In this document: positions 2 through 31,437 of the stretch, piece by piece | How positions within the stretch are numbered: the first letter of the stretch is position 1 | Layout of the letters: each line of letters opens with the position of its first letter | Origin: a virus | Length of the DNA: 64,000 bases | Virus record (IMG/VR): IMGVR_UViG_3300008116_000173 | Coordinates: 8,522-72,521 of that record | Strand: one strand, 5' to 3' | The notes under the pieces: generated by a model | Database searches by the model: none | The model's input: the letters and a program-made list of their open reading frames with translations, nothing else | Told to the model about the DNA's origin: nothing | Made by a program: the position numbers and the translations under genes

Positions 2-3000
2 AATAAATTACCTTTTCTTGAAGAAGCTGCTGCTAAAAATCCTAAATATGCAGCTGATTACATTAATGTTTTAGCTAACATGATGTATTTTGAAACATCT
101 AAACAGATGTTTTATGTAGAACAAATAAGTAAACTAAATGCTCAAATTTTAGATATAGATAACAGTGATAAAAGATTTTTACCACAGAATGAAGCTTTTC
201 GTGAAAAATTTGTTAAACAAATTGAATCATTAGAAAAACTATTATCAGAATCTAAAGAAAATTATAAAATTTTGTTTGATGAAAATGAACAAAGTAAAGC
301 ATATGATGAATATATAAAAGATAGAAAAGAAGAAGAAAATTTAGCACAACAAGCACAAGCTGAAGTTGATGCTGTTAATAATGAATTTGATCCTGTTAAT
401 AATCCTCAAGGTGCAGCTAAAGAACAAGCAGCTGCTGCAAGTAATGTTGCTGAAGATCTTAAAAATGAATTTGGTAATACACAAACTAATCCACCAACAC
501 TTAATGAAATATTAAATCAAAGTCAAGGTGACCGTGCACCTGCACCTACATTAAGTGATGTATTAAATCAAACTGCTCAACAAACTCCTGTTTCTACAGA
601 TGCTAAGAAAGCTGATATAGAAAAAAATTATTTTATAGTTACAATGTCTGGCTCTAGAACTATTGAGCAATTAAAATCAGAAAAAAATCCTGATTTTATA
701 GGAGACTATGAATTTTTAGATTTAGGAGATGGTTTAGTAGCATGGAAAACACCTAAAGATCCAAAATCAACAATTCAACAATATTTAATTGCAGATACTA
801 AATCAAATAGTAAATTAATACATAAAACATCTAAAGATGTAAAAGGTAATTTTGCAAGAATAAATGAACCTAATGTAAAAGCAGATGCTAAGTCTAGTAA
901 TGATAATTATGAATTAAGATTAAATAGATTAAATGAAGCTATTTCAAAAATTAATAATGCAGAACTAGCTGCTTTAGAAGGTAGTAAACCTGCTGAACCA
1001 ATTGCTACTCAAACACCTGTTACATCAACTGTATCTGATGAAGATCAAGATGAAGTATCTAAACAAATAAATAATGTATCAGTTTATTCTCATACTGATG
1101 ATTATGATAATGTTGATAAAATACCTTTAAACTCAATAGAAGGTAAAATAAAACAACTCTGGAATGATTTCAGAATGCTTTTATTTAAAGGTAAAAAAAT
1201 AGGTAAACAATATTTATTTGATCGTAATGAAAATGGTTTGCCTAATTATGAAAATAAATCAGGTATTGATGTTACTGCTTTAAATAATTTAAGAAAAGGT
1301 GATACTGTTAGATTTGAATCACGTCCTTTATCTGTAGATCCAGATGCTATTGCTATATTAGATTTAAATAATAAACTAATAGGTTGGGTTAGGGCTTCAG
1401 CTAAAAAACAATTAGAACAATTAAAAACAAATAATCAGTTAAATACTGAACAAGCTCAAACACTTCAACAATTTGAAGAATGGCGTACAACATTACTTAA
1501 TAAACTTAAATCAGGTGAAGAAGTATATAGTACAGTTCAAGAAAAAGGTACAGGTAACTTATACACTAAAACTATATTATTACCTACAGGTCAACAGATT
1601 GTAGATGCTAATATAGATATATTTAATTCATTTAGAGAAAAAGATACCATACAAAGTAAACCTATATTTGTATATGCAAGTAAAAAAGATGTTACAGGTA
1701 GATCAAAATTAGTATTACCTGAAACAACATTTACACCTGAAGAAAATGCAGCTATTCAAAATAGATTAGAAACATTAAATAAATATGATTTAAAACCAGG
1801 TCGTGTATTTAAATTAATTAAAGATTTAAATGATGAGTGGAGTTTAATGCCATTATATGCTAATAATATTACTGATGATATTTTTAAAGATATAGTTGAA
1901 ATATTAAAAAATACAGATAATGAATCTGATATTCAAATACTTAGTCGTGATTTAAATAAATATATTTATAGTACTACTAATGATAATAAATCAGCACCAT
2001 TATTAATTAAGAAAAATCAAATTAATCAAATTGTTTTTTATTTAGGTACTAAAAGTTTTACATTAGATGATATAAAATCAAAACCTGAAATTTGGAAACA
2101 AGTTAAAGATATACTTAAAAAACAAAAACAAAATATAGAGGTAGCAAACCTTAATCAATCATTTCAACAACAAGAGTATGCTAAAAACAAAACCTTGTTA
2201 ACAAATGTTAATTTATATGAAGGTGAATATTTTATACAACCTTATGTATCTTACGTAACAGATTTTAAAATTAACATAAATCCTAAACCTGTAACTACAA
2301 CACCAGCTGCAGCTAGTGCTCAACCTAGTACTAATCAACAACAAGTTGATAGGGCTGAACGTTTAAAACGTGCAGCAGCTAGGTATAAAAATCCAGATAC
2401 TGAAGGTGCAGCATCAGTTAGACCTGATTATAGTAAATATAATGAAAAGCAATTTAAAGCCTTTTTAAAGAAGAAATTACCTCAGCTTAGTATAGCTAAC
2501 CAAGACCAATTAAATGCTCTTAGAGGGCTTCTAATTGATCCTGTGGGGTATTTTAAAGGTAACCTTATATATTTATTTAAAGGTGCTGGTAATTTAACAG
2601 CTTACCATGAAGCATTTCACGGTGTATTTAGGAATTTATTAACAGTAGCTGAGCGTGAAAATATAATTAATGAAGCTAAAAGTAAGTATAAAGAACCTAC
2701 AAAAGAAGATTTAGATAACTTACAAAAACGTTTAAACAATAATTATACTACTGAACAATTAACTTATTTATATTACGAAGAACAATTAGCTGATGATTTT
2801 GCAATTTATACTAATGATAAAAACAACCGTAGCTTACTTAAAAGAATTACAGATGCTATTAGAGCTATATTTGATAAAATACTGTCCTATTTTGATTTAT
2901 TTGAGAGTGCTAATACCTCAAGTATAAATGATGTATTTGATGCTGTAAATGAAGGTAGATTTAAACAAAGACAATCTATAAGTAATAATGTAGTTAATTT

Positions 3001-6000
3001 ACCTTTGTTTCAAGAAGGTGCTTATTCACCTAAAGCTAAATTAAATATTGGTTTAGCTGATAGAATTAAAGTTGTATCATCATTAGCTGATAACTTTTTA
3101 GCTTTATTGAATCAACGTATAGTTAATGATAAATATGCTGATGTAAGTAAAAAAGATTTATTTAATGGTATATATGATGAATTATACAATCAATTAAATG
3201 AAGCTTTTGATTTAAGCGATTCAGATTTACTTGGTAATGTTATATTAAATTATGCTGATTTAATTAATCAGGATGTTAAAACTAATTTAAAAGAACGTGG
3301 TGTACTTGATAATTTTGATTATGAATTTATTAATAGTGAAGAACGTAATCCTGAATCAAAATCAACATTAACTAATGATGATAAATTAACATTAGCTGTA
3401 TCTGAAACTGAAGAAACTCAAATTAAAGAAGGTAAAGATTCTAAAGGATATAGAGAACAAACTTCTATTTCAGGTTTAACTACTGCATCTGCACGTATTA
3501 AATTATTTTTATCAGCTATACCTGTTTATGAAGAAAATGAAAATGGTGAATTAGTTTATGAAAAAAATGAATTAGGTTTACAAAAATATCATGATTTTAA
3601 ATCATTATATTATTATATAGAAAAGAACTTAATTGATAAATATACTTTTGAAGAACAATTAGCAGTGTTAAAAAATTTAACATCTTCTAATCCTGCTTTA
3701 ATAAGTGTATTAAATAAACTTCAAGTTAATCCGCCCTACATGAGTGCTGAAAGATTTGAAATGTTACAAAATGATTTTAAAACTAATTTTAGTAAACAAC
3801 AACTAGTATACACATTAGTTAAACATTCATATAATCCTGCTAATAATACTATTAGTTTTAAAATAATAGATGCTAATAGAAATAATTTACCTACTAAATT
3901 AAAAGAAAGTTGGAAAAATAGTTATACAGTTAATGTATCTGAAAAAGGTTTATCACAACCAATTAAATTAGAAAACACTCTTAAAAAAGAAATTAAAAAA
4001 CTTGATAATGAAAATGGTGCTTTAGATGTTGATGTTATCAGTTCATTGCTTAAAACTATTCATATTGATTTAAGTAAAAAAACTATAGAAGCTAATGCTG
4101 ATAGTAAAGTATTTGCAAGGGATATAAATGTTGTATTATCATGGTATATTAAAAATAATAATACTAATTATGATGCTGCTACAAGGATAGCTATTGAAAA
4201 TTTAATTAAACTTGAAACAGCTGTAATGATAGAAATGCATTCACAATCATTTATTGATGGTGAAGGTAATAATATCTGGACTATACAATTACCATCTGAA
4301 TTAAGTAAGTTTTTAGCTAAAGTTAAAAATCCTCAAAAACGTGAACGATTTATAAATGATTTCTTTAAAGATGTTTTTTATAAAAATTCTAATTTACTTA
4401 ACGAATTACAACGTAATTCTAAATTTGCTGAAATATTTTCAATATCTTATTTAGATTCATTTAAAGATGAAATAGGTGTTAAAAAAGGTATTGGATTTAC
4501 ATCATTATCACCAAGAGATTATTTAGCTATGAAAATAGCTTTATTTAATAACCTTGAGGTTAATAGTGAAGATCGTTTTACAATGCCTGTAAATAAATAT
4601 TTATATATTGTACCTGCTGATAAGAGTATGCAAGCCATTGTAGACTCTACATCATTTGATGTTTTCTTTGCACCAAACAATATTGAAGTAAGTACCAATA
4701 GTAAAATCATTGAGTCGTTTTATAATATATTTTTACAAGAAGCTAAACGTATAAATAAGTTTAATAAAATAAAAAATAGTTTTTTAACTGAAGGTTCACA
4801 ATCAAAATTTAAACCTACATTGCTTAATGAGTATGGTGTATTTAGTAAAAAAACATATCAAAGTGATTTAGTACAAAATTTATTAAATAAATATAATACT
4901 GAAGGTACATTAACTAATGAAGAATATGCACAATTAGCCAATAAAATGGATGGTCAAGCATTTAAATTTAATTATTTAAATAATGATTATTTTACATTTG
5001 CTAAAAATTTACCACAACAAACTAAAGAGTTAATTAAAAATACATTAGAAAATAGTTTACTTACTGATGATATGCTTGAAAAATCTTTAGCTGCGCAAAA
5101 AAATATAATTAAAAAAGAGTTAGCTTCATTTGTATATAAAACTTATGAAATAACTTTAAAAGAGTGGGAAAGTAAAGGCATAATAACTAAAAATAAAAAT
5201 AATGAATATGTTAATTCATTAGTTCAATTACCTTCTGTAAAAACAACTACTAGTGTAGATCAACGTATTAAAAATTTAGCATTAAAATATAGTGCTAATT
5301 ATTTATTACACAATATTGAACTATCTAATATGTTTAACGGTGATGTATCTCAATATAAACCTAATGATTTACAAAAACGTACTAATCAGTCACAAAGTTT
5401 TATGACTGATGGTAAATTTAATAATCCTGTAATAAGAACTAAAGTAAATAAAGATGTTATACATGATTATTCTTTAGAATCAGATTATACTAACATGGTT
5501 GATGTACTTAAACAATTAGGTGTATCTGATGAACGTATAAATGAAATATTAGATCCATATAAAAAGACTAATGTAACAGATGCTCAAGTAATAATTCATC
5601 CTGAATTTTTTAAACTTATTCATTATTCACAAGGTACTTGGACACCTGAATTAGAAACAGCTTATAACATAGCTGAAGGTATAATACCTGGTGATGCTAA
5701 AAAAAGTGTACAAACATTATTACGTGGTTTTAAACCATTTTATTTTGGTAAACGTTTTGATCCTGTAACTGAAACATGGTATTATGAACAAGTTAAATGT
5801 TCTATGTTTCCATTATTTAAATCTTATACAGATATTAATCCATTATTTGCTTTAAAACGTGAAGAAATGGAAAAAGATAATATAGATATGATAGCTTTTG
5901 AATCATCATTCAAAGGTGCTATAGGTTATAGAAGTGATTTTTTAGATGATAATAAAACTATATTAGAATTAGATGTTAATAATTTTGGTATTCAACAAGC

Positions 6001-9000
6001 TAACCCTGATCATACTACTGAAGGTAATGATTCATTACGTCAGCTTAAAATGATTTTACCAGGTACTATTGACACTAATGTTAGTTATAATGGTAGATCA
6101 GGTGCTGATATATTAGATGAAATATTATCACTTGAAGCTGCTAATTTAAAAACTGATTTAATTAAATTAACTAAATTATTAAATAATCCTTCGTCACAAG
6201 CTGAGTTTAATAGCTTTATTCAAGAAATGATTACTAAGCGTGGTGCTTATGAAGTATTAGTTAATTTTTTAAGTGTTGATGAAAATGGTCAATATATTTA
6301 CCCATTAGATAGTGGTATAACAAGTACTAAAGTACAAGAATTATTATCTAGTGTATTTACTTCTAAAGTATTAAAACAAAAATTTAATCATGGTGGTTCA
6401 TTAGTACAAGCTACTAGTTTAGGTCTTAAGTTTAGTAATTTAAGTGAACAACAAAAAAACCTTACACCTGAATTATTAGCTAAACAACGTAAATTAGAAT
6501 GGTTTAAACCAAACATTCAAACTGGTCAAATAGGTTATGCAGAATGTATTATGCCTGCATCAGCTAAAAAATTCTTTGATGAAAATGGTTTTTTAAAAGA
6601 TATAAATAATATACCTGATGCATTAAAAGAATTTATAGCTTATCGTATACCTACTGAAGGTTTACATTCAACAATGGCTATTAGAGTAATTGAATTTTTA
6701 CCTAAAGAATTAGGTAATTTTATATTATTACCTTATCATGTAACTACACAATTTGGTGCTGACTTTGACTTTGATAAAATTTATTTCTTTGGTAGAGAAT
6801 TTACTACAAGTGTAAATAAGAAAACAGGTAAAGTAACTTACAGAATACCTGAAATGAATTATGATGAAACTGAGTATGCTACTGAACAACGTTATAAAGA
6901 TTATGTATATTCTGTATTACAAGATAAAAATAATGAACTTTATTATGAAGATGTTATTACTGAATATGAAAAATATTATGGTGAACCAATAGCATCATTA
7001 TCTAAAAATGAAAAAATACAAGTTTTAGTAAGTGAAAACATACTAATGACACTAGATAAATTTAGTAAACGACCTATAGAAGAACAAAATACTAAAGCAG
7101 CTAGGAATAATCGTATAGTTGATAATTATCTTAATATTATTACATCTATTGAAAACTTAACTAATATTATTGCACCTTCAAGTTTTAAAGACATTGCTGA
7201 TTTTAAAAATAATTATTTTGGTGAAAATGAAAAAGTTAATTTCTTTGCTGATTTTACACAAAATAATTATAAAAATCGTAACCATACAGGTAGGATATTA
7301 AAAGGTATATGGGCTTTACATTTAACAGGTCATTCATATGCTCGTATATCAGGTTTATCAACTAAACAAAATGTAAATGCTCAAGGTTTTGTAGATTATG
7401 GTAATTCAGTTAATCTTGAAGGTGGTATTACTGAAGGTAATAATCATAGAAATGATTTTTCAAGATTATATAATGATGAAGGTAAATTAATAGCTCGTGA
7501 GTTAGGTAAAGTGATGGCTGCTGTATTAGATGACCTTAAAAATCCATTACTTGAAAGTTTAAATATTAACCAATATACAACACATGCGTTAGCTGCTATT
7601 CTTAGGGCAGGTTATTCTATGGAAACTATGTTATTGTTTTCAAGTCAACCTGCAATAACTAAGTTTTCACAACAGTCTATAGATAATTCAAGTGCTTTAT
7701 CTAAAAAAACTGAACGTTTTGACATTGAAAATTTAAAAGTATCTTATATTAAAATATTAAAAGATATCTATAATAAATATGAATATCAAGATAATCCTGA
7801 TATTAAAAGACTTATGGATACTTTAAATACAAATATACCTATTACAAATGCTGAATTAAAGGATATTTTAACTAATTTTACTAATGACGCTAATGGTAAT
7901 TTAATTAATAAAGTTACTGGTAAAAAACCTAGTGTTGAACAAGCTATGAAATACTATCATGTTCAGGTTAATGTTTTAAAACAAATGGAAAACTTAATTG
8001 CAATAGGTGATCAGTTTAAAAACTTAAATAATTTTTATACTATAAATAAAGAAGTAGGACCTCAAATAGAAGATATTATTGAACAACAAGATTTGTTAGT
8101 TCAAATATCTAAAGATGATATATTACGTGATTATGAAATTGATTCAATGGCTACTTTATATCAAACATGGGATACTCATTTAAATGCTTTAGATTACTTT
8201 TCTAAATACTTTCCTTATAGTAGTGAGCTATACATGGGTATTAAAAGTCAAATAGCTTTAATTCAAAAAAATAAAAGTATTAGCGGTATTAAAACTGATG
8301 ACCGTAAATTAATAAATAACTTTATTAGGACTTATTTAGATTATTCTTTTGAGAAGTTTGTTGATATACCATCTCAATCTGAAGAATTATTAAGATCATT
8401 CCCATCAATGGTTAAACAAATTACTAAAGGTACATCAGGTTTAAAGATAGATGATATATCATATGAAGAATTAAGTAAAAATCCTTTTATAGCTAATATT
8501 GAAGTTAAATTCAATAAAAAAACTGGTTTAAATCAAATTCAATTAAAAAGTGGTCAGTTAATACCTCAAGTAAAAGATAGTATCTCTAATGGGCTTATAT
8601 TGCTTTATAACAATAAAAAAACAAGAGGGTTAGCTGAAAATTTTGTTAAATATGCATTTTTAACTAGTGGTTTTTATACTGGTGTTAATATGTATTCAAA
8701 TCTTATAGATCCAAGTATATTAAAAGCTATGGAGTATACAAATTATAGGATGCAAACAACTAATGATTTAGTTAATGGTACTTTTACATTAGAAGTTGAT
8801 AATAATAGATTAATAGATCAATTAGTTAGAAATTATCCTTATAACTTTACTAATATATTTGATAGTAATTTATTTGATGAATCAACTAAAAATGGTTTAC
8901 CTAATAAATTAACACTTAATGAAGAAGCTTTAAATGAAGCTAATATGAGTGGTTATATGTTTGATACTAAAATTGGTATTTTAACACCACGTTATATAAT

Positions 9001-9952
9001 GGTACGTCAAAAAGATGCTGAATCTACTAAAAAAGAAGGTTTAACATTATATAAATTAGAAAATAATAATGAAGGTTTTAAATATGTTAAAATAAATGAA
9101 TTAGGTAAAAAAGGATTTTTAATAGAAGTAAATCCTTTAGAAGATATTGTTAATAGTGTTGTTAACAGAAATTTAGAAAAAATACCTGATGCTATACTTC
9201 AAGATCCACCTGATGGTGTTGAAAATGATATGATGCCTGAATTAAGTATGTCAAAAGATACTGAATATGATATGGAAGCTAGTATACTTGGTAAATCACA
9301 AGTTGAATTTGATGCTATAGATAAAGCTATTGCTGCTAAATCTATTACTCAACCTATAGTACAACCTACTGAAAGAAAAACTTATTCAGGAAAAGTAACA
9401 AGTTTACAGCCTAATCAAATATTTGTATTTGGAAGTAATCCTCTTGGTATTAATGGAAATCCTTCTAAAGGCACAGGAGGAGCAGCTTTAGTTGCGTATA
9501 ATATTGCAGGTGTTAAACAAGGTGAAAAAATGGATAATAAGTTATCTGATTCAGGAAAAGCTTGGGGAATTACAACAGTAAAAGCTCCAGGACAAAAAAG
9601 AAGTAAAACTCCTGAACAAATAACAGAAGGTATTAAAAAATTATATGAATATGCTAAACAAAATCCAACCAAAGAATTTTTAATTTCTGATTATTCAGGA
9701 ACAAATCTTAATGGTTATACAGGTCAAGAAATGGCAGATATGTTTGTTAATGCAGGATCAATACCTTCTAATATAGTATTTAATAACAACTTTGATAAAT
9801 TAATTACTACTCAACCTACTACTCAACCTACTGCACAAGATAATCAAATATTAAATTCACCACAATTTAAAGAATTTTACAATAAAGAATTAGAAAGTAA
9901 TCCTAATTTAACTGTAGAAGAAGCTTTAGATTATTATAAAAAATGTAAATAA
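2..9952 (+). CDS. Giant virion-packaged RNA polymerase of crAss-like phage (5'-truncated by the window), with zincin-like domain and accessory inserts
   Basis: The frame is open from nt 2, upstream of the ATG at 80. Catalytic-type motif QFGADFDFDKIY (~6749-6784) is preceded by AYRIPTEG, as in crAss-like two-barrel vRNAPs. AYHEAFH...YEEQLADDF zincin motif at ~2600-2800. More than 3290 aa. Confidence 0.9.
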   Translation, partial: NKLPFLEEAAAKNPKYAADYINVLANMMYFETSKQMFYVEQISKLNAQILDIDNSDKRFLPQNEAFREKFVKQIESLEKLLSESKENYKILFDENEQSKAYDEYIKDRKEEENLAQQAQAEVDAVNNEFDPVNNPQGAAKEQAAAASNVAEDLKNEFGNTQTNPPTLNEILNQSQGDRAPAPTLSDVLNQTAQQTPVSTDAKKADIEKNYFIVTMSGSRTIEQLKSEKNPDFIGDYEFLDLGDGLVAWKTPKDPKSTIQQYLIADTKSNSKLIHKTSKDVKGNFARINEPNVKADAKSSNDNYELRLNRLNEAISKINNAELAALEGSKPAEPIATQTPVTSTVSDEDQDEVSKQINNVSVYSHTDDYDNVDKIPLNSIEGKIKQLWNDFRMLLFKGKKIGKQYLFDRNENGLPNYENKSGIDVTALNNLRKGDTVRFESRPLSVDPDAIAILDLNNKLIGWVRASAKKQLEQLKTNNQLNTEQAQTLQQFEEWRTTLLNKLKSGEEVYSTVQEKGTGNLYTKTILLPTGQQIVDANIDIFNSFREKDTIQSKPIFVYASKKDVTGRSKLVLPETTFTPEENAAIQNRLETLNKYDLKPGRVFKLIKDLNDEWSLMPLYANNITDDIFKDIVEILKNTDNESDIQILSRDLNKYIYSTTNDNKSAPLLIKKNQINQIVFYLGTKSFTLDDIKSKPEIWKQVKDILKKQKQNIEVANLNQSFQQQEYAKNKTLLTNVNLYEGEYFIQPYVSYVTDFKININPKPVTTTPAAASAQPSTNQQQVDRAERLKRAAARYKNPDTEGAASVRPDYSKYNEKQFKAFLKKKLPQLSIANQDQLNALRGLLIDPVGYFKGNLIYLFKGAGNLTAYHEAFHGVFRNLLTVAERENIINEAKSKYKEPTKEDLDNLQKRLNNNYTTEQLTYLYYEEQLADDFAIYTNDKNNRSLLKRITDAIRAIFDKILSYFDLFESANTSSINDVFDAVNEGRFKQRQSISNNVVNLPLFQEGAYSPKAKLNIGLADRIKVVSSLADNFLALLNQRIVNDKYADVSKKDLFNGIYDELYNQLNEAFDLSDSDLLGNVILNYADLINQDVKTNLKERGVLDNFDYEFINSEERNPESKSTLTNDDKLTLAVSETEETQIKEGKDSKGYREQTSISGLTTASARIKLFLSAIPVYEENENGELVYEKNELGLQKYHDFKSLYYYIEKNLIDKYTFEEQLAVLKNLTSSNPALISVLNKLQVNPPYMSAERFEMLQNDFKTNFSKQQLVYTLVKHSYNPANNTISFKIIDANRNNLPTKLKESWKNSYTVNVSEKGLSQPIKLENTLKKEIKKLDNENGALDVDVISSLLKTIHIDLSKKTIEANADSKVFARDINVVLSWYIKNNNTNYDAATRIAIENLIKLETAVMIEMHSQSFIDGEGNNIWTIQLPSELSKFLAKVKNPQKRERFINDFFKDVFYKNSNLLNELQRNSKFAEIFSISYLDSFKDEIGVKKGIGFTSLSPRDYLAMKIALFNNLEVNSEDRFTMPVNKYLYIVPADKSMQAIVDSTSFDVFFAPNNIEVSTNSKIIESFYNIFLQEAKRINKFNKIKNSFLTEGSQSKFKPTLLNEYGVFSKKTYQSDLVQNLLNKYNTEGTLTNEEYAQLANKMDGQAFKFNYLNNDYFTFAKNLPQQTKELIKNTLENSLLTDDMLEKSLAAQKNIIKKELASFVYKTYEITLKEWESKGIITKNKNNEYVNSLVQLPSVKTTTSVDQRIKNLALKYSANYLLHNIELSNMFNGDVSQYKPNDLQKRTNQSQSFMTDGKFNNPVIRTKVNKDVIHDYSLESDYTNMVDVLKQLGVSDERINEILDPYKKTNVTDAQVIIHPEFFKLIHYSQGTWTPELETAYNIAEGIIPGDAKKSVQTLLRGFKPFYFGKRFDPVTETWYYEQVKCSMFPLFKSYTDINPLFALKREEMEKDNIDMIAFESSFKGAIGYRSDFLDDNKTILELDVNNFGIQQANPDHTTEGNDSLRQLKMILPGTIDTNVSYNGRSGADILDEILSLEAANLKTDLIKLTKLLNNPSSQAEFNSFIQEMITKRGAYEVLVNFLSVDENGQYIYPLDSGITSTKVQELLSSVFTSKVLKQKFNHGGSLVQATSLGLKFSNLSEQQKNLTPELLAKQRKLEWFKPNIQTGQIGYAECIMPASAKKFFDENGFLKDINNIPDALKEFIAYRIPTEGLHSTMAIRVIEFLPKELGNFILLPYHVTTQFGADFDFDKIYFFGREFTTSVNKKTGKVTYRIPEMNYDETEYATEQRYKDYVYSVLQDKNNELYYEDVITEYEKYYGEPIASLSKNEKIQVLVSENILMTLDKFSKRPIEEQNTKAARNNRIVDNYLNIITSIENLTNIIAPSSFKDIADFKNNYFGENEKVNFFADFTQNNYKNRNHTGRILKGIWALHLTGHSYARISGLSTKQNVNAQGFVDYGNSVNLEGGITEGNNHRNDFSRLYNDEGKLIARELGKVMAAVLDDLKNPLLESLNINQYTTHALAAILRAGYSMETMLLFSSQPAITKFSQQSIDNSSALSKKTERFDIENLKVSYIKILKDIYNKYEYQDNPDIKRLMDTLNTNIPITNAELKDILTNFTNDANGNLINKVTGKKPSVEQAMKYYHVQVNVLKQMENLIAIGDQFKNLNNFYTINKEVGPQIEDIIEQQDLLVQISKDDILRDYEIDSMATLYQTWDTHLNALDYFSKYFPYSSELYMGIKSQIALIQKNKSISGIKTDDRKLINNFIRTYLDYSFEKFVDIPSQSEELLRSFPSMVKQITKGTSGLKIDDISYEELSKNPFIANIEVKFNKKTGLNQIQLKSGQLIPQVKDSISNGLILLYNNKKTRGLAENFVKYAFLTSGFYTGVNMYSNLIDPSILKAMEYTNYRMQTTNDLVNGTFTLEVDNNRLIDQLVRNYPYNFTNIFDSNLFDESTKNGLPNKLTLNEEALNEANMSGYMFDTKIGILTPRYIMVRQKDAESTKKEGLTLYKLENNNEGFKYVKINELGKKGFLIEVNPLEDIVNSVVNRNLEKIPDAILQDPPDGVENDMMPELSMSKDTEYDMEASILGKSQVEFDAIDKAIAAKSITQPIVQPTERKTYSGKVTSLQPNQIFVFGSNPLGINGNPSKGTGGAALVAYNIAGVKQGEKMDNKLSDSGKAWGITTVKAPGQKRSKTPEQITEGIKKLYEYAKQNPTKEFLISDYSGTNLNGYTGQEMADMFVNAGSIPSNIVFNNNFDKLITTQPTTQPTAQDNQILNSPQFKEFYNKELESNPNLTVEEALDYYKKCK

Positions 9953-9968
9953 TAATAACTTATAAATT

Positions 9969-12900
9969 ATGTCACAAAGTTGTTTTAATTTTAGTCTTAA
10001 CGAAAATAAAAGAATAGCTGAAGATTTTGGAGAAATAGAAACTCAAAAATTAATTGAGTTGTATTTTCCAGATAAAAATCCTGCTAGTTATAATGAATTT
10101 ATAAGTAATGATAAAGTAAAAGAAGCTTTAGGTTTAAAAGGTATAACTGAAGCTAACAAACTTTTAAATACTAATTATAAAAAAGAAATTAGTAATCAAC
10201 AATTAATTAATTTAAAAAGTATTATTAGTCAAACTAATAATAAATTAAAAGGTGAAAATAAAAACATAGTATATAAATTATACAATGTTAAACAATTAGG
10301 TGAATCTGATAATTATACTTGGGGTATACGTGAAATAAAAGGTAATTTAGATGTTGATGCTAAAATTGAAAGAGCTTTAACTAGAGGTAAAACTGAACAA
10401 GCTAAAAATTTAAAAAATTTAAATGATAATAATCAATTAACATTATTTCAATTATCTAATAAACAAATTATTAAACCAGGAGTACAAGAACTATTTGATT
10501 CTAATCCTGAATTAGCTAATCAAGTATATGAAGCTTTAGGGTTTAAAAATCAAACACCTAAAAGATTAACTAAATCTGATAGAACTTTATCTAAGTATAT
10601 ATCTATTGGAAAATCTGAATTTGAAAAAGCTCAAAAAGAAGCCAATACCAAAAGTTCTGATTTTAATCATAATGGATTTAGATGGTATGAATCTGAGGAT
10701 GAGTTATTTGGTGGAAAAGATTGGAGAAAAGATGAATTACCACAAAGTAATAGTGGAACTTTTGAGGATGATTACTATAAGTTACAAGTAGAATTTTCTC
10801 AAAAAGCAAGAAGTTTTCATCCAGAAGATTTTGATGAAATGGGTTTTGAGTTATTGTATGATTTACCTCAAGATGAATTATTTCAAGCTATCAGATATTG
10901 GTATAAACCTTTAGAAGGAATTGAATTTACAGAATTAGCTGATATATATGACCCAAATTCTTCTTATAATAAAAAACATCCAGAAGATATTAAATCTAAA
11001 GATGCTTCTGATTTAAGAAAGTTTATTGAAAAAGAAATAGGAATTAAAAATAAACTATACCCTTCCTTAAACAACCAAATAACCCCACAACAAAAACAAA
11101 AAGCTCTACAACTATACTCTCAATACTTAGATACTATATTTCCTGAAAGAACAAATATTGTTTATTCTACATCAACACTAGATGATGGAAGTAATTTTTT
11201 AACAGATGATATAAATTATTCAAAAAAATATAAAGGTATTACAAAACCATATATTGTAAATTTAAAAAATTCTTTAAAAACTAATTATGGTATTAATATT
11301 GCAATTTCTAATATATTATTTGAAGAAAATCCTAATATAGATGTAATTTATGGTAAAGAAGGAGAAAGAATAAGTTATAAAGATATATGGGCTGAAATTC
11401 AACAAGATCCTGATTTAACACAAAATGAAGCTATAAAATTATTATCATCTAGACCAACAAGAAATATTAATGTTTTTGTTGTTAAAAATAAATCAGAAAA
11501 ATATGAATTAAATACTAAACAAGATATTGAAAATTTTAAAAATTTTATTAATAAAGAAAATAAATTAAATAATTTTGATTTAGATATTGATGAAAATCTA
11601 ACAAAAAAAGAAAAATTAACAAAATTTTTTACTCAATTTGGTTTTAAATTTGAAGAAGGAGATTTATCAACAGATTTATTAAAAAAAATAATATATGTTA
11701 ATAAAAATGATATTGAATTATTTATTAATAATTCTGTAAAAGCTTTAAGTCAACTTTTATTAGCTAATACTAATATAGATTTTAATAAACTTAAAAATTT
11801 AATTGAAAATACTGAAGAATTTAAAAGTTTATTAAATAATTCAACAACTGAATTTAAAAATAATTATTATCATATAAACAGTGGTAATAAAATTCCAATT
11901 AATGATTATAGAATTTATCAAAAAGATTATGAAAATATAAAAAAACAAGTAATTGAAAAATATTTAAAAGAATCTTTATTAGATAATAAAAATTTAAAAC
12001 CTTTACACAAATTAATTATTGATTTTATTAATTGGTTAAAAAATTTATTTGAAACTGCTACAAATTTAAAAGATATTACTGATAGTTTAATACAACAAGT
12101 TTTTGAAAATCAAAAAGAAATTATTATTAATTCTAATCTTTTAAAAAATAAAGAAAAAGTTAATTTAAATAAAGCTTTAAAAGAAACTAAACATGGTAAA
12201 AATATAATTAAAATATTTGGTGATTTTGGTTTAATTCTTACTGGTAGTATAAGTGCATCTGAACAAGGTACTATTTGGAGAAAAATTGGTAAACTTTTAC
12301 ACGATATTGATTGGATTGTACCTAAAGATTTTAATAAAGATTATTTACAAAAATTATTTGATGAATTTCCTGGAGCAACATTAATAAGACAATTTGATAG
12401 TCCTGGTTATTACACAAGAACATATGTTGTTCCACCAAAAGGATACACTATTGCTAATTTAGAATATTTTGAAAAAGAAAAATATAATGAAAAATATATT
12501 AAACAATATGATTTGTTAGATCAAAATAATAAAATAGTTAATAATTATAGAAGATATTATGATGTAACACCTGAAGGAAAAGTTTACGAAACAAAAGAAG
12601 TTTATAATGAAAATTTACAAAATGTTGATGTAAATTTAGATCCTGTATTAGTTGATTTTTTTGAAAATAAACAAAATTTAGAATTTAAACCTTATACTGT
12701 AAATGTAGAAGGTGTTAAACTACAATTATCAAATTGGTTATCTTCTTTTTCTGAAAAATTAAGATACGGTAGAGCTAAAGATTTATTAGATTATGCTTTA
12801 TTTATACCTAATGATTTAAATCAATCAAAAGATAATAAATCATTTCAATTAGAACCAACAATACAAAAAGATCCTACTGAAATTATTCAACAAGTTGATA

Positions 12901-15900
12901 CTTTATTAAATGATTATATTAATAACAATAATATAAAAGTTGAATTTAAAGATAGGGTTTTAGATGATAATGGTAATGATGTTGTAGCTTTTTACAATAG
13001 TGTTAAAAAAGTTATTGAGATTAATCAAAATCAACGTGATAGTAAAACATTACCTGAAGAATTAGCTCACCATTTACATTTAGCTTTAGGTAAAGATCAT
13101 ATACTTGTTAAACGTGCTTTTAACCTATTAAATAGGGTTGATTATAAAGCTATGTTAGGTCAAGAATATGTTGACTTATATAAAAATAATACAGATTTAT
13201 TAAAATTTGAAATATTAGGTAAATTAACTGCAGCAGCAGTACGTGGTGAAAAGATACCTTTACAAATGAATACTGTTGAAGGTAATAAGCTTTGGGATAC
13301 TATTAAACGTATGATTGATGCTGTTATAAAGTTATTTAAACCTGATGTAAATGTTCAAAAAGAACTTGATAATTTAAGTAATCAATTTGCTAATATGCTT
13401 AAATCAGGTGTTAAAGTTGATAGTGAAAAATCAATTAATGCTAAATTATATCAAACTAATAAAGATTTAATTAATTTAAGTTCTAAAATTAAACCTGCTT
13501 ACGTTTATTATACAACATTATCAACAGCACTTAAAAAGAAACAAAAACAATTTAGTGCATTATCTGAAGAATATAAAATTATTCAAAATCAAATTAATAC
13601 TATTGATATATCATTAAGAGAATTAATTCAAAATGAAAATGAATTACCTTTAATTAATCTTGTTGAAGAAACTATAACAACTGTAGCTCAAAACATTAAT
13701 GATTTTGAAATTAATTATTCTAAAGGTATAATGCCTTCAGAAAAAAATATTATTGAAGCTGTTGAAATACTTAAAAAGTTTTCAGGATTTCCTGGTACAG
13801 AAAGTAAAATTAATGCTTTAAAAGCTAGATTAATTAATTTTATTAAACCTTATTTAGCAAATAAAGCTTCTGAGGTATTAGGTAAACCTGTTACTGAGGA
13901 AGATATATCTGCTGTAACAAGTGATATTAATGTACTTGAAAAGAATTTTGGTACATTAGCAAGAACTGAATTTACATTATCACGTATGCTTGGTTTATTA
14001 ATTAAACAAAAGCAAAATACTATAGAACGTGAAAATAAGCAAGCTTTTGAACAAGTACAAGCTGCTACTAATAAATTAAAAGATTGGGCAGCTAGCAAAG
14101 GTATGTCTTTAGAGCAAGCTTTTGATGTATTACAACAAGAATACAGAGGTACTAGAATATTAACTAAAGAATATACTAGTGAATTTTATAAGTTAATTAA
14201 TGATACTTATAAATTAGATCCTGAAAAAGCTAAAGAAGCACGTGCTAAAATAGCTATTTGGGATGCTGCTAATAAAAAATGGATACCTAAATCTACTAAG
14301 TATAATAATCCAAATTACCAATTAATACATAAAAAAGGTAATGAAGATTTATTAAACTATTATAATTTCTTTAAAGATCAAATTCAAAAAATATCTGATA
14401 ATACATTACCTATTGAATTAGATGATTATTTTATACCTAATGTGTATGAAGAAACACTTTTAGATATATTAAAAACTGAAGATGCTGTTGGTGATAAATT
14501 AAAAGATAGTGTTATCCATATATTAGAATTTAATCCATTTGAAAAAATGGGTACTGTTGATAAGCAGATGGATGTTATTTATGATGCTGATTTGATTGGT
14601 GATAAAATACCTTTAAAATACATTCAAGCACTACCTGAAGATAAGAAATCTAAAAATTTAAGTGCAGCATTATTAAAATTCATGTATTTTGCTAATAGTT
14701 ATAATCACATGAATGAAATATTACCTATTGCTAACTTAGTTCAGGAAACTATAACAGACCCTGATACTAGTAAAATACTTCAATATGGTAACCCTAACTT
14801 AAACGTTGCTGCTAAATCTAATATAGTTGACATGGTTAAAACTATAAAAGAAATGCAGATTTTAGGTAAGATGCGTAAAGAGAATGAAATGTTTAATGTA
14901 TTAGGTTATAAATTAAACTATGGTAAATTAATTGATTTTGGTTTACAGTACACTTCTAAAATACGTTTAGGTTTAAATCCATTTGCTGCATTAGCTAACG
15001 TTGCTGTAGGTAACTTAGGTAATATTATTGAAGCTGCAGGTGGTAAATACTTTACATTAAGTGAATATTTTAGTGCTTTAGGTACCTTTACAACTGAAGC
15101 TAAAAAAGTAGATGGATTGATTAATCTATTTAACCCTTTGATGGAAATGGATGATTATGAAAATCTTAAAAAATTAGGTGTTGGTTCTAAAGAATACCGT
15201 GAAAAAATAAATGGTTTGTTATATGCACCTACACGTATGGGTGAAAAACAAATGCAAACTACTACTATGATTGCTATATTAAAGCATAAAAAAGTTGACA
15301 TTAAAGATAAAAAAGGTAATGTAACTGGTAGTATATCAATGTTAGATGCTTTTGATAGTAATGGTAAATGGGATACTGCTAAAATGGGTTATGAATTAAA
15401 TGAACAAGAAATTAATAAAATAACCAATAGAGTACATGGTGTTAACCAAATGATTCATGGTAGGTATTCAGCTAAAGATGCTGCTGCAATGCAACAATAT
15501 GCTATGTATAGGGCTTTAATGCAATTTAAAAAATGGATACCAGCTGCTGTTGAACAACGTTTTATGGCTAGACGTTATGACCCACTATTAGATGAAGAAA
15601 CTGAAGGTAGGTATTGGGCTTATGCTAAAGGTCTTAGACTTATGATGGCTAAATTAAAAAATGATGCCAAAAAGATTGAAGAAAATAAGTTTACTGAATT
15701 AGATTGGTATAACATGCGTAGAAATGCTATGGAAGTACTAATGATAGGTTTAATGTTTGGTTTAACTACTTTCCTTAAAGCTGGTGATGATGATGATGAA
15801 TTAAAGCGTAATGCAAGTTATAAGACTTATATGCGCCTTTTAAACAGCGTTAGTGGTGATTTAATGCAATGGTATTTACCAGGTACATTTTTAGATAAAG

Positions 15901-16139
15901 CTATGGTATTACCTGTAACTAAAACATTAAGGTCACTTGAAAGAACTATACAGTATACACCTTATATGTTTGGTGATTATACTAGTGATGCTTCAGGTAC
16001 TTATGAAGCTGGTGAACGTAAAGATGAAAATAAATTCTGGAGTAATTTCTTTAATAATGTACCTTTTGGTAGTACTACTGCTGACATGTACAGAACATGG
16101 TTTAAAGATGATGTAAGTTACATACCTCGTAATAGGTAA
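9969..16139 (+). CDS. Giant virion (ejected/cargo) protein of the RNAP gene block, with inserted domains
   Basis: 2056 aa directly after the vRNAP. LPEELAHH degenerate zincin-like motif, internal NTase motif TGS...HDIDW, and a C-terminal region (MQFKKWIP...RF, EGRY, hydrophobic helix) resembling large phage ejection proteins. Confidence 0.75.
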   Translation: MSQSCFNFSLNENKRIAEDFGEIETQKLIELYFPDKNPASYNEFISNDKVKEALGLKGITEANKLLNTNYKKEISNQQLINLKSIISQTNNKLKGENKNIVYKLYNVKQLGESDNYTWGIREIKGNLDVDAKIERALTRGKTEQAKNLKNLNDNNQLTLFQLSNKQIIKPGVQELFDSNPELANQVYEALGFKNQTPKRLTKSDRTLSKYISIGKSEFEKAQKEANTKSSDFNHNGFRWYESEDELFGGKDWRKDELPQSNSGTFEDDYYKLQVEFSQKARSFHPEDFDEMGFELLYDLPQDELFQAIRYWYKPLEGIEFTELADIYDPNSSYNKKHPEDIKSKDASDLRKFIEKEIGIKNKLYPSLNNQITPQQKQKALQLYSQYLDTIFPERTNIVYSTSTLDDGSNFLTDDINYSKKYKGITKPYIVNLKNSLKTNYGINIAISNILFEENPNIDVIYGKEGERISYKDIWAEIQQDPDLTQNEAIKLLSSRPTRNINVFVVKNKSEKYELNTKQDIENFKNFINKENKLNNFDLDIDENLTKKEKLTKFFTQFGFKFEEGDLSTDLLKKIIYVNKNDIELFINNSVKALSQLLLANTNIDFNKLKNLIENTEEFKSLLNNSTTEFKNNYYHINSGNKIPINDYRIYQKDYENIKKQVIEKYLKESLLDNKNLKPLHKLIIDFINWLKNLFETATNLKDITDSLIQQVFENQKEIIINSNLLKNKEKVNLNKALKETKHGKNIIKIFGDFGLILTGSISASEQGTIWRKIGKLLHDIDWIVPKDFNKDYLQKLFDEFPGATLIRQFDSPGYYTRTYVVPPKGYTIANLEYFEKEKYNEKYIKQYDLLDQNNKIVNNYRRYYDVTPEGKVYETKEVYNENLQNVDVNLDPVLVDFFENKQNLEFKPYTVNVEGVKLQLSNWLSSFSEKLRYGRAKDLLDYALFIPNDLNQSKDNKSFQLEPTIQKDPTEIIQQVDTLLNDYINNNNIKVEFKDRVLDDNGNDVVAFYNSVKKVIEINQNQRDSKTLPEELAHHLHLALGKDHILVKRAFNLLNRVDYKAMLGQEYVDLYKNNTDLLKFEILGKLTAAAVRGEKIPLQMNTVEGNKLWDTIKRMIDAVIKLFKPDVNVQKELDNLSNQFANMLKSGVKVDSEKSINAKLYQTNKDLINLSSKIKPAYVYYTTLSTALKKKQKQFSALSEEYKIIQNQINTIDISLRELIQNENELPLINLVEETITTVAQNINDFEINYSKGIMPSEKNIIEAVEILKKFSGFPGTESKINALKARLINFIKPYLANKASEVLGKPVTEEDISAVTSDINVLEKNFGTLARTEFTLSRMLGLLIKQKQNTIERENKQAFEQVQAATNKLKDWAASKGMSLEQAFDVLQQEYRGTRILTKEYTSEFYKLINDTYKLDPEKAKEARAKIAIWDAANKKWIPKSTKYNNPNYQLIHKKGNEDLLNYYNFFKDQIQKISDNTLPIELDDYFIPNVYEETLLDILKTEDAVGDKLKDSVIHILEFNPFEKMGTVDKQMDVIYDADLIGDKIPLKYIQALPEDKKSKNLSAALLKFMYFANSYNHMNEILPIANLVQETITDPDTSKILQYGNPNLNVAAKSNIVDMVKTIKEMQILGKMRKENEMFNVLGYKLNYGKLIDFGLQYTSKIRLGLNPFAALANVAVGNLGNIIEAAGGKYFTLSEYFSALGTFTTEAKKVDGLINLFNPLMEMDDYENLKKLGVGSKEYREKINGLLYAPTRMGEKQMQTTTMIAILKHKKVDIKDKKGNVTGSISMLDAFDSNGKWDTAKMGYELNEQEINKITNRVHGVNQMIHGRYSAKDAAAMQQYAMYRALMQFKKWIPAAVEQRFMARRYDPLLDEETEGRYWAYAKGLRLMMAKLKNDAKKIEENKFTELDWYNMRRNAMEVLMIGLMFGLTTFLKAGDDDDELKRNASYKTYMRLLNSVSGDLMQWYLPGTFLDKAMVLPVTKTLRSLERTIQYTPYMFGDYTSDASGTYEAGERKDENKFWSNFFNNVPFGSTTADMYRTWFKDDVSYIPRNR

Positions 16140-27541: not shown

Positions 27542-29095
27542 TTATAAGTTTTTTAAGGATATATTATTATCTAATTCATTATCAACATACTCATCATTTT
27601 CAGTAAATTCAGCATCATTAAACTTAGCTATACGTTTATCAACCCAAGCTATAAGTTTATTTGCTTTCTGTCCATATACTTCAGTAAGTATTTTTGCTAA
27701 TGATAGATTACTATTTTCATAAATAAAACGTTTATGATTTTCAACAATATCTACTAAAGCCATACAGATTAACAACCAGTTTTTAATCTTAATATAAGAT
27801 GTAGAACCAGGTGCTGGTCTGAATTCAATAGTATAAATCTTGTTTTTCCTAGTATTAAATAATGCAGGTACAAAATTTACCCAGCAATAACGTGCTGAAT
27901 CATGATCATAACCACATTTATAACCTTTAGGATGGTCATTCTTTTTATTTACTTTTTTACTAGGATTATTATTTGCGCTAACATATCTAACAATAGCTTC
28001 ATAAGTAACATCTATAGCATAATTCCTATTAAAGCTTTGTAAGTCTTTAATATTAAAATTTATCATAGGACGACTATCTAAGAATCTACAATATGTATTA
28101 TTACGACGAGATTTAGGTAACATTGTAAATATCTCACGTTGTAATTTATGATACAAATAATACATTAAAACAATATTTTCTTTGTTAAAGTTAATATTGG
28201 ATAAATGCACATGCACACCACATTGATGATTTACTAAACAACGTTTAGTTAACTCATTACAAAGCTTTTTTAGTTTAAGTAAACCACGGTCACCCATTAA
28301 TACATCAGTAACATATTCCTTACCATAAGGATGATTGTTTTCAGCATCACGTAATGAACCATCATGAACACTAGAACAATTTAATGGTGCTAGTACATGT
28401 GCAGGTACTAAACCACTAATAGTTTCTATTTCTAAACCAAAACTATAACGTTTACCATAAGTATTATGATATGTTGTAGGTAGATTGTTATTATCACTTG
28501 GTGCATTAAATTTAATACCATCAACACGCATTTGTTTTACAAATGGTTCAATTTCAGATTTAAGTTTAAATATACCTGTATAATAATCTTCAGCGTAAAA
28601 TTTATTAAAAGTTGCATTAGCAAGTAAACTTGGTTTACCTAGATATGGTTTATTAGATTGTATACGTATATAACCTAATCTAAAAGCTTGATCATGATCA
28701 CAAGTATACTTTATTTCAGAATCAATTATAGGATAATTCTCAATAACAGCTGTTGCATTAAATTTAATAATATAACGATCTGATTCAAAATAATCTGTTA
28801 CAATATTAGGATCATCAGGCCTAGCATAAGAATCATGAAGTTGTATTAAATCATTTGAATATTCTACAACTTCACCTGTATATAACATTACCTCATTTTC
28901 ATCTAAATCAGGTTCATAAGGATTATTGTCATCATCATGTACTTCTGTATACTCATCTTCTGAAGGGTTAAACCAAAGATCATCAAGAGTTGTAGATATT
29001 ATATCAGTAGATGTGGGTACTACATCTGGTTCAGGAGCATCTGGTTCAGGTGGTGTTAAATTTTCAGGTATTGAATGATTTGGAATTATTGGCAT
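27542..29095 (-). CDS. Putative amidoligase (Amidoligase_2 / glutamine synthetase-like COOH-NH2 ligase)
   Basis: FGLEIET, HDGSL, KEYVT, CGVHVH, RYCWVN, TIEFR; acidic/Pro-rich N-terminal extension. Confidence 0.85.
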   Translation of the reverse strand: MPIIPNHSIPENLTPPEPDAPEPDVVPTSTDIISTTLDDLWFNPSEDEYTEVHDDDNNPYEPDLDENEVMLYTGEVVEYSNDLIQLHDSYARPDDPNIVTDYFESDRYIIKFNATAVIENYPIIDSEIKYTCDHDQAFRLGYIRIQSNKPYLGKPSLLANATFNKFYAEDYYTGIFKLKSEIEPFVKQMRVDGIKFNAPSDNNNLPTTYHNTYGKRYSFGLEIETISGLVPAHVLAPLNCSSVHDGSLRDAENNHPYGKEYVTDVLMGDRGLLKLKKLCNELTKRCLVNHQCGVHVHLSNINFNKENIVLMYYLYHKLQREIFTMLPKSRRNNTYCRFLDSRPMINFNIKDLQSFNRNYAIDVTYEAIVRYVSANNNPSKKVNKKNDHPKGYKCGYDHDSARYCWVNFVPALFNTRKNKIYTIEFRPAPGSTSYIKIKNWLLICMALVDIVENHKRFIYENSNLSLAKILTEVYGQKANKLIAWVDKRIAKFNDAEFTENDEYVDNELDNNISLKNL

Positions 29096-29097
29096 AA

Positions 29098-30621: not shown

Positions 30622-30622
30622 A

Positions 30623-31432
30623 TTAAATTAATTGTTTAATGTTAGTAATATTTAAATTATAATCTTCAATAATATCGGTAGCTATCCGTTGATTGCATGA
30701 ATTAACAGCATCAATTATATCACCAGGGTTAGTAATAATACCACCTTGATTAACAAAATTAATAGCTGCTTGTGTTTGGTCATAAACCCAGCTTATAAGT
30801 TGGTCATTTTGTATAAAATAACTACTTAATACACGGTATTCTACACCATATTTCTTCATCCTAAAATCACCAGCTTTACCATACATTTTCCTACGTTCAT
30901 TATCTGGGTCAATAAGTACACTAGGTACACCTAGGAATAAATCCATAGCCCTGATAATATCAATAGAAGTTTGATCATTAGGATTATCATAACCCACATG
31001 AATATGCATACCAGTAGTACGTAATGTATAATCACTACGATCTACCTGATGTTCTTCAAATGACCATGCATCATATGATTTACTACAACCCATATGCTGA
31101 GCTGCAGGATTGCTTAAATCATCTTCATTAAAACGTGCTGAAGCTACATAATGAGGTATTAATTCTAAAGGCTTTAATACTGTTTCAGTAATATAATTCT
31201 TTACAAAATTAATACTATTAATAAATTCAGTTTTAGTTGTAGCTGGCGGTATTGTAAATTCTAATGCCACGTTATCTTCTTGTAAAGAATAGCCTATATT
31301 TTCTTCATTAATAGGGATAGGTTTTTCTTTTGTACCACCAACTAAACCACATACAGGTACATATTTACCATAAAGTGGTGAGTATAAAAATAATTCAGGA
31401 TCTGTACCAATTTTTGCGTTATTAATTTTCAT
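30623..31432 (-). CDS. phiEco32-like COOH-NH2 ligase type 2
   Basis: IGTDPELF, GGTKEKP, QEDNVALEF, LRTTGMHIHVG, RRKMYGKAG.FR.K.YGVEYRVLS. Confidence 0.9.
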   Translation of the reverse strand: MKINNAKIGTDPELFLYSPLYGKYVPVCGLVGGTKEKPIPINEENIGYSLQEDNVALEFTIPPATTKTEFINSINFVKNYITETVLKPLELIPHYVASARFNEDDLSNPAAQHMGCSKSYDAWSFEEHQVDRSDYTLRTTGMHIHVGYDNPNDQTSIDIIRAMDLFLGVPSVLIDPDNERRKMYGKAGDFRMKKYGVEYRVLSSYFIQNDQLISWVYDQTQAAINFVNQGGIITNPGDIIDAVNSCNQRIATDIIEDYNLNITNIKQLI

Positions 31433-31437
31433 AGTTT

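Follow-up and report, generated by a model that had tools for sequence, protein, structure and literature searches.

No phages are more abundant in the human gut than the Crassvirales, yet to our knowledge little has been established about how their packaged cargo acts during the first minutes after infection. The RNA polymerase gp66 of phage phi14:2 is packaged in the virion, translocated with the DNA and transcribes the early genes, and in vitro it shows a strong preference for single-stranded or denatured DNA (bioRxiv 10.1101/2020.03.07.982082). The same source describes the DFDxD motif of crAss-type RNA polymerases and a zincin-like protein that adjoins the polymerase or is fused to it. 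In crAss001, gp47 is among the cargo proteins detected in virions by mass spectrometry (PMC10172136). Phages and conjugative elements also encode polyvalent proteins (Iyer, Burroughs, Anand, de Souza and Aravind 2017, PMC5512222), and some phages carry macro or NADAR enzymes against DarT systems. AdfM (PhiKZ gp104), a DarG2-like phage macrodomain, removes the adenosine diphosphate ribose (ADP-ribose) that DarT2 attaches to DNA (PMC13309987), while T4 AdfN, a NADAR protein, and other phage NADARs neutralise DarTG1 (PMC11825919). Here we consider a stretch of 64,000 nucleotides (64 kb, hereafter the window) from a crAss-like phage, positions 8,522 to 72,521 of the IMG/VR record IMGVR_UViG_3300008116_000173. 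Its first gene encodes a giant crAss-type virion RNA polymerase polyprotein, and near the C-terminus of this protein a module with a predicted macrodomain fold is held between two linker repeats that encode the residues TQP. We describe this module as an in-frame, horizontally exchanged cassette, and ask what it might do.

The boundaries of the cassette are apparent from comparison with nearly identical phages. Scanning viral contigs with the C-terminal body of the polymerase returned no relative, and the scan of metagenomes returned two, L004 and L005. Both loci are 99.5% identical to the window from 6180 to 9312 (blastn), and identity resumes at 9803, at 94-98% (98.4% through 10479 in L005). 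The replaced block is therefore 9313..9802 on the + strand. Two linkers, also on the + strand, mark its ends. The upstream linker, ITQPIVQPT (9344..9370), contains ACTCAACCTA at 9347 and CAACCTACT at 9362; the downstream linker, TTQPTTQPT (9806..9832), is a 12-base unit in tandem, with ACTCAACCTA at 9809 and 9821. An exact search of the 64 kb found ACTCAACCTA exactly three times, and CAACCTACT at 9362, 9812 and 9824 plus one unrelated site, 39069, so that every repeat position given in an earlier, sequence-only reading of this DNA was recovered. With up to one mismatch allowed, the repeat has 12 matches against 5.0 +/- 2.1 expected, a number reached in 0 of 100 shuffles. The motifs on which that reading based its recognition of the module (NQIFVFGSNPLG...GGAALVA...LYEYAKQNPTKEFL...NGY...MADMF...PSNIVF) are present in the translation.

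Codon usage and sequence matches elsewhere indicate where the block came from. Between 9344 and 9832 the glycine codons are 10 GGA, 6 GGT and 1 GGC, exactly as the sequence-only reading had counted them, compared with 109 GGT, 6 GGA, 2 GGC and 4 GGG in the remainder of the open reading frame (ORF; Fisher p = 2.3e-7). The backbone's use of GGT, which had been called near-exclusive, amounts to 90% (109/121). At the DNA level the cassette is 83-90% identical, over some 445-530 bases, to cassettes that sit in unrelated polymerase backbones (L006-L010). Homology to these foreign cassettes starts at 9347 (L010), 9350 (L006) or 9363 (L009) and ends at 9819-9824, inside both linkers. The glycine usage of those backbones is mixed between GGT and GGA (for example 56/44 and 33/52), like the cassette and unlike the window backbone, and TQP-like linkers flank the module in many backbones. 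We suggest that the TQP-coding repeats would act as short homologies that keep exchanges in frame.

The sequence-only reading had proposed a recent acquisition, and the codon skew, the near-identical backbones without the module and the close matches in mixed-GGT/GGA backbones all support it. The converse, that the block is an old, vertically inherited part which relatives have lost and that its codon skew reflects chance or local selection, would be helped by the fact that no codon family besides glycine differs visibly between the block and the remaining ORF, the others looking native. We regard it as extremely improbable, given the strength of the glycine skew, the lack of the block in backbones 99.5% identical, and its resemblance to cassettes whose backbones otherwise align over only a few hundred residues. 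In L005, moreover, the codons of the DarG-like cassette are native ones (14 GGT / 2 GGA).

The module is not a universal part of the orthologous polymerase. It is absent from 4/4 of the closest protein orthologues (P0123 at 77% identity, P0125 and P0126 at 61%, P0124 at 53%), as it is from 2/2 of the near-identical DNA loci described above. Alignment of the C-termini of P0122-P0125, of which P0122 represents the window, reveals one slot in four states, and all of these proteins keep the tail ...NSPQFKEFY...DYYKKCK. In P0125 the slot is empty and reads ...AKSITQPSTQPTAQDNQ..., in P0124 it holds a different module of about 170 residues flanked by the same linkers, and in P0123 it holds a third. 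A further arrangement is found in L004 and L005 (4134-5389), where the polymerase ORF ends early at ...DISDDEANELNQKCK and the accessory module occupies a gene of its own. The separate ORF of L005 (4247-5389, 380 residues) consists of a 155-residue N-terminal domain of unknown family, a TQP linker, a P0124-type module, a second TQP linker and the tail.

Both alternative modules are predicted to belong to folds associated with ADP-ribose. The only matches of the P0123 cassette profile in the PDB are YbiA 2b3w (expectation value, E, 0.005) and NADAR 8bau (E 0.2), and Pfam NADAR reaches only E 0.068, below the cut-off. Its structural model, with a predicted local distance difference test score (pLDDT) of 82.9, matches 8bau with Z 8.5 and a root-mean-square deviation (rmsd) of 2.8 A over 109 residues and 2b3w with Z 7.6, while the best non-NADAR chain scores 4.7; the cassette is thus predicted to be a NADAR-fold module. 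The cassette shared by P0124 and L005 (family A3) has a profile that matches the DarG macrodomains 5m3i, 7omu and 5m31 (E 5e-9 to 1e-7) as well as TARG1 (E 5e-4). An invariant Lys of the family aligns with the lysine of the DarG PTK motif, the catalytic lysine after the central strand. By sequence we assign this cassette as a DarG-like macrodomain.

The cargo of the window cassette belongs to a different family, A1S_2505 / phrog_2072. It spans 9377..9811 on the + strand, 145 residues with a predicted macrodomain fold, where the family profile (A1) matches residues 3100-3244 of the polymerase (P0001). The match to phrog_2072 has an E of 3e-18. NCBIfam NF049995, whose title is 'A1S_2505 family phage non-structural protein', is matched over profile positions 1-109/109 with 61.6 bits, where the cut-off is 45, and an E of 7.5e-17. 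Both are families with a name and without a known function. In the ESM Atlas the nearest named clusters are 'A1S_2505 family' (0.93 and 0.91). The third-nearest named cluster, at 0.90, is DUF7831 (PF25176), which recurs in the C-terminal arrays of L026 and L031 and may be another relative of the module's fold.

Members of the family occur both alone and fused. A search among proteins of near length (81-259 residues, E <= 0.001) gave 203 relatives, many of them 55-70% identical, and 106 cultured-phage records match the module, mostly Vibrio or Aeromonas phage genes of unnamed function. Among the matches listed (40 of 106), the named crAss-like records are cr50_1, cr112_1, cr116_1 and a Kolpuevirus, and crAss001 and phi14:2 are absent from the same 40 in this protein search. 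The module stands at the N-terminus of the cr112_1 polymerase and inside giant genes of cr50_1, cr116_1 and the Kolpuevirus. It is carried by 116 of the 120 giant proteins listed, at relative positions 0.17-0.96, and lies inside a giant ORF in 28 of the 30 viral-contig loci that have it. The statement in the sequence-only reading that the family is normally standalone therefore describes the cultured-phage records and the 203 small proteins well, but fails for crAss-like phages, in which it is mostly fused. One standalone homologue of 127 residues, Pseudomonas phage Zuri gp22 (L002 2582-2965), is annotated 'DarT ssDNA thymidine ADP-ribosyltransferase family protein'. We considered from this label that the A1S_2505 family might be a transferase and rejected the idea, the fold being macro. 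The label is probably an error that arose from a match to the macro portion of a DarT-DarG fusion, for example 7omu; the module model also matches 7omu, at chain residues 208-383.

Structure prediction places the module among macrodomains. From an alignment of 49 family members (48-71% identity, 18 invariant columns), AlphaFold2 gave a model with pLDDT 91.5 and a predicted template modelling score (pTM) of 0.87. Foldseek against the PDB returned YmdB and TARG1 at E 2.5e-4 to 7.6e-4 (YmdB 2.5e-4), and also macroH2A and alphavirus nsP3. An independent structural search of 48,161 chains found 27 at Z >= 8. Each of the 26 rows that score above Z 8.2 is a macrodomain or a fusion or design derived from one; at the top stand alphavirus nsP3, the DarG macrodomain of M. 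tuberculosis, and TARG1, all with Z 10.4. When the 1,000 best Foldseek matches were re-scored, all 50 entries listed had the macrodomain fold, designed proteins included (Z 9.7-11.6, rmsd 2.7-3.4 A, 125-136 residues). TARG1 came first (Z 11.5-11.6, rmsd 2.7-2.9 A, 127-129/148 residues), and against the same model DarG scores Z 10.3-10.4 and alphavirus nsP3 Z 10.1-10.4. The macro-like fold anticipated by the sequence-only reading is thus borne out by the model, and we consider the predicted fold certain; the subclass within macrodomains is not fixed, because rows within one Z unit count as ties. Neither of the two findings that would have refuted the sequence-only reading, an absent macro-like fold or a domain universal among orthologues, was made. 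Polar residues among the invariant columns include N22, E51, N55, S58, T68, Y91, Y107, N113 and N133. Invariant Asn22 and a Gly-rich loop (G35-G36-A-A-L) align with the Asn/Gly loop of the DarG-like family A3 (hhalign of A1 against A3, probability 82%, E 1e-5).

We lean towards the view that the module erases ADP-ribose and enters together with the DNA, probably as a counter to DarT-type ADP-ribosylation of DNA. Because homologues of its polymerase travel inside the virion and are translocated along with the DNA, the module would reach the cytoplasm ahead of all phage gene expression. Once there, it would bind ADP-ribose and remove ADP-ribose adducts, most likely from phage DNA modified by DarT-type toxins. 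We favour DarT-type DNA adducts as the target because the other occupants of the slot appear to belong to families that reverse the marks of DarT1 (NADAR) and DarT2 (the DarG macrodomain). Having a NADAR-fold module and a DarG-like macrodomain as its alternatives strengthens the proposed role, and the cassette is probably a ready-made tool of counter-defence.

Several observations weigh against this proposal. The homologues known to be packaged and ejected are all distant (23-25% identity). Cleavage of the polyprotein is possible, and cargo has to unfold on its way through the tail (PMC10172136). Pfam Macro (PF01661) matches 0/49 family members at E <= 1 and not the window domain; PADLOC DarG likewise matches 0/49 at E <= 1, and NCBIfam DarG does not match the window domain at E <= 0.1. 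The link to PF01661 is indirect, through the sister cassette family A3, which matches it at E 0.03. Profile A1 against PDB sequences gave chance-level matches (best E 0.14, an agglutinin receptor), and Pfam returned nothing meaningful for the domain or for the whole protein. For the catalytic lysine of DarG and TARG1 the family offers no strictly conserved equivalent: residues vary at the position that follows the strand, and residue 75, the closest basic one, can be either Lys or Arg. Proteins of the same fold that do not act on ADP-ribose, such as aminopeptidase N-domains, also reach Z 7-8, and a shared fold shows no function. The module ends after 145 residues, and no second domain of the DarT-binding C-terminal type lies between it and the tail.

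As no canonical set of catalytic residues could be assigned, the module could be a non-catalytic macro-fold domain that binds or senses ADP-ribose or nucleic acid, or that simply serves the cargo protein as a spacer for structure or packaging. Many macrodomains are indeed readers only, and the polymerase evidently works without the module, because an orthologue with an empty slot exists. We nevertheless judge a non-catalytic role improbable. The 18 invariant columns, many of them polar, and the conserved loop Asn persist across 49 sequences of 48-71% identity; families known as enzymes replace the module in its slot; and the family survives as a standalone gene of about 145 residues in many phages.

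The neighbours of the module in other polymerases call for caution, as the neighbour and co-occurrence samples were selected via the domains themselves and their frequencies are indicative only. Counts were made on 23 non-duplicate fused loci, after near-duplicates (L013, L015, L017, L018 and L030) and standalone loci (L034 and L035) had been dropped. Pfam NADAR lies directly downstream of the module in L007, L020, L026 and P0128. AlkB-like domains occur in five (L010, L011, L022, L027 and P0127), as do PIF1-type helicase domains (L008, L025, L028, L032 and P0133), with ART-PolyVal in L024, HD in L009 and DUF7831 in the two loci already named. By our own profiles, 16/144 module-bearing sequences contain the small NADAR type and 0/144 the DarG-like type; conversely, 1 of the 40 giant proteins with the DarG-like type has an A1-like match. 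A1S_2505 and DarG-like modules thus almost never occur in one polymerase (P0127-P0241, P0255-P0347), and A1S_2505 is often beside NADAR.

These neighbours bear on whether the substrate is DNA at all. An ADP-ribose enzyme might instead act on protein-linked ADP-ribose, on the polymerase itself or on other phage or host proteins that host transferases have modified, or on small molecules such as O-acetyl-ADP-ribose, ADP-ribose-1''-phosphate or immune signals derived from nicotinamide adenine dinucleotide (NAD). The structural ties within one Z unit include enzymes of protein or small-molecule substrates (TARG1, YmdB, Poa1p and viral nsP3 macrodomains), conservation of the DarG/TARG1 lysine is lacking, and packaged Macro, NADAR and Nudix domains have been proposed to counter NAD-derived signals too (Iyer et al. 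2022, PMC9503650). We consider a non-DNA substrate unlikely, in that the interchangeable cassettes of the slot represent two families that act on ADP-ribosylated DNA bases, and the module's frequent neighbours (NADAR, AlkB-like, PIF1-type helicase) are nucleic-acid enzymes. The presence of ART-PolyVal in some module-bearing polymerases (L024, several giant proteins with PF18760, and cr116_1) raises another possibility, that of self-immunity, the module serving like an antitoxin that reverses or prevents modification by the phage's own ADP-ribosyltransferase during virion assembly. This is very improbable here: Pfam finds no transferase domain in the window polymerase, PHROGs named none among the 45 other window ORFs, and most module-bearing polymerases lack ART-PolyVal.

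Returning to an eraser of DNA ADP-ribosylation, a bolder version can be proposed, which we offer as a doubtful possibility. In it, the TQP-coding repeat would be a dedicated in-frame recombination joint with which crAss-like phages shuffle a set of ADP-ribose erasers (the A1S_2505 macro-fold module, the DarG-like macrodomain and NADAR) onto a packaged polymerase; the tethered erasers would clear ADP-ribosyl-thymine or ADP-ribosyl-guanine from the template in cis, ahead of early transcription; and A1S_2505 would be a class of DNA ADP-ribosyl glycohydrolase not recognised before, able to stand in for the DarG macrodomain, with which it almost never shares a polymerase. The erasers would work in cis because DarT toxins modify DNA in its single-stranded form, which is what the polymerase reads. 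If true, tethering an eraser of DNA-bound ADP-ribose to a polymerase with a single-stranded template would represent a new way of protecting early transcription.

The host gene of the cassette occupies 2..9952 on the + strand in a single frame, with its 5' end open at the window start. The full-length protein is P0122 (3,883 residues) in the protein collection, of which the window ORF is a suffix at 100% identity. Its identity as a virion RNA polymerase, which the sequence-only reading had rightly assigned, follows from a DFDFD motif and from homology to known polymerases. P0001 residues 2100-2499 match phi14:2 g066, 'Catalytic RNA polymerase subunit', with 23% identity over 99% of the 400-residue query (tblastn, E 7e-10), and also match the crAss001 'putative RNA polymerase'. 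Homology to the solved phi14:2 gp66 was established through tblastn to the phage record because a phmmer search of PDB sequences with the whole polymerase, and with the next giant protein (ORF2), matched nothing. DFDFD (6761..6775, + strand, P0122 residue 2821) corresponds to the DFDxD catalytic metal-binding motif of crAss-type RNA polymerases. As 106 of the 115 domain-bearing giant proteins align over this region of P0122, we class these, on their alignment, as crAss-type polymerases. Upstream, HEAFH (2606..2620, + strand) is a zincin-type HExxH metalloprotease motif (P0122 residue 1436, with a 593-residue offset), over which 23 of the 115 related giant proteins align. The conserved C-terminal tail, AQDNQILNSPQFKEFY...DYYKKCK and stop (9833..9952, + strand), is retained by every cassette variant in the P0122-P0125 alignment, and its Cys is the penultimate residue.

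Around this gene the window has a G+C content of 21-37%, with a replication module on the - strand and terminase, portal and major head genes on the + strand. The next giant gene, ORF2 (9969..16139, + strand), encodes 2,056 residues with one Cys at residue 5, and lies at the position of the 'putative RNA-polymerase subunit' gene in cr112_1. It has no PHROG match at E <= 1e-5 and no match among PDB sequences; its place is that of the second 'RNA polymerase subunit' gene in crAss001-like phages. Cysteines tend to sit at the tips of these proteins: the polymerase has 3 in its 3,883 residues (2500, 2749 and 3882), and the 380-residue cassette protein of L005 has exactly two (residues 3 and 378). 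The mean Cys content of the other window proteins is about 1%. The tip cysteine codons of the window are 9944-9946 in the polymerase tail and 9981-9983 for Cys5 of ORF2. Elsewhere, within the replication module and beside the DNA polymerase, a cluster on the - strand (27542-32843) comprises amidoligase, glutamine amidotransferase-like, COOH-NH2 ligase (E 2e-67) and RimK/ATP-grasp-like genes, and may constitute a DNA hypermodification or peptide-ligase system.

The locus offers leads in several directions. It suggests what A1S_2505 / phrog_2072, a widespread phage family without a name and with hundreds of standalone and fused members, might do. It may also serve as a concrete example of how defence and counter-defence evolve when cassettes are exchanged in frame at a linker whose codons are conserved, and it hints that DarT-type DNA ADP-ribosylation is a major pressure on these phages.

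The general ideas on which our interpretation draws, namely polyvalent virion proteins, packaged Macro and NADAR domains, and phage anti-DarT macro and NADAR enzymes, are already published. A literature search covering few subscription journals found no publications on accessory cassettes of crAss polymerases or on A1S_2505 function, and under the name 'A1S_2505' only unrelated Acinetobacter work. Neither PMC5512222 nor PMC9503650 mentions crAss phages.

Compared with the known systems one by one, the window module shares something with each. Its host protein has the DFDxD motif and is homologous to phi14:2 gp66 and crAss001 gp47, which are virion cargo (bioRxiv 10.1101/2020.03.07.982082; PMC10172136). 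The DarG macrodomain and TARG1 (5m3i, 5m31, 7omu, 4j5q-4j5s) are its best structural matches and have the same Asn/Gly-rich first loop. The module differs from them in its low identity (13-16%), a first loop 6 residues longer, a family-specific insert with invariant E51, N55 and S58, the lack of a strictly conserved catalytic lysine and the lack of a DarT-binding C-terminal domain. AdfM is, like the module, a phage macrodomain, and its loop Asn, mutation of which lowers activity, matches the module's invariant Asn22 (PMC13309987). However, AdfM is standalone, is imported into the phage nucleus and can be aligned to DarG by sequence, whereas the module is fused to a polymerase and has no Pfam Macro or NCBIfam DarG match. 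AdfN provides the precedent of an orphan, antitoxin-like ADP-ribose eraser carried by a phage, and a predicted NADAR-fold module fills the window's slot in P0123. AdfN itself has another fold than the module and is expressed from a separate gene, and the words 'packaged' and 'virion' do not occur in PMC11825919.

A further parallel is with polyvalent proteins (PMC5512222; PMC9503650). Like these, the window polymerase is a giant multidomain protein, predicted to be delivered by the virion, in which a zincin-like module is joined by variable enzymatic domains whose predicted action falls at the onset of infection. The window polymerase combines a zincin HExxH motif, an RNA polymerase and a macro-fold module, and its relatives vary in domain content, with NADAR, AlkB-like, PIF1-helicase, ART-PolyVal, HD and DUF7831 domains. 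Its module also resembles the ADP-ribose-processing domains for which packaging in the virion and early deployment have been predicted (Iyer et al. 2022, PMC9503650). That account describes its phage Macro, NADAR, SLOG and Nudix exemplars as 'typically standalone', whereas the window presents a crAss-type two-barrel RNA polymerase scaffold, an unnamed family, A1S_2505, and a defined in-frame joint coded by TQP repeats.

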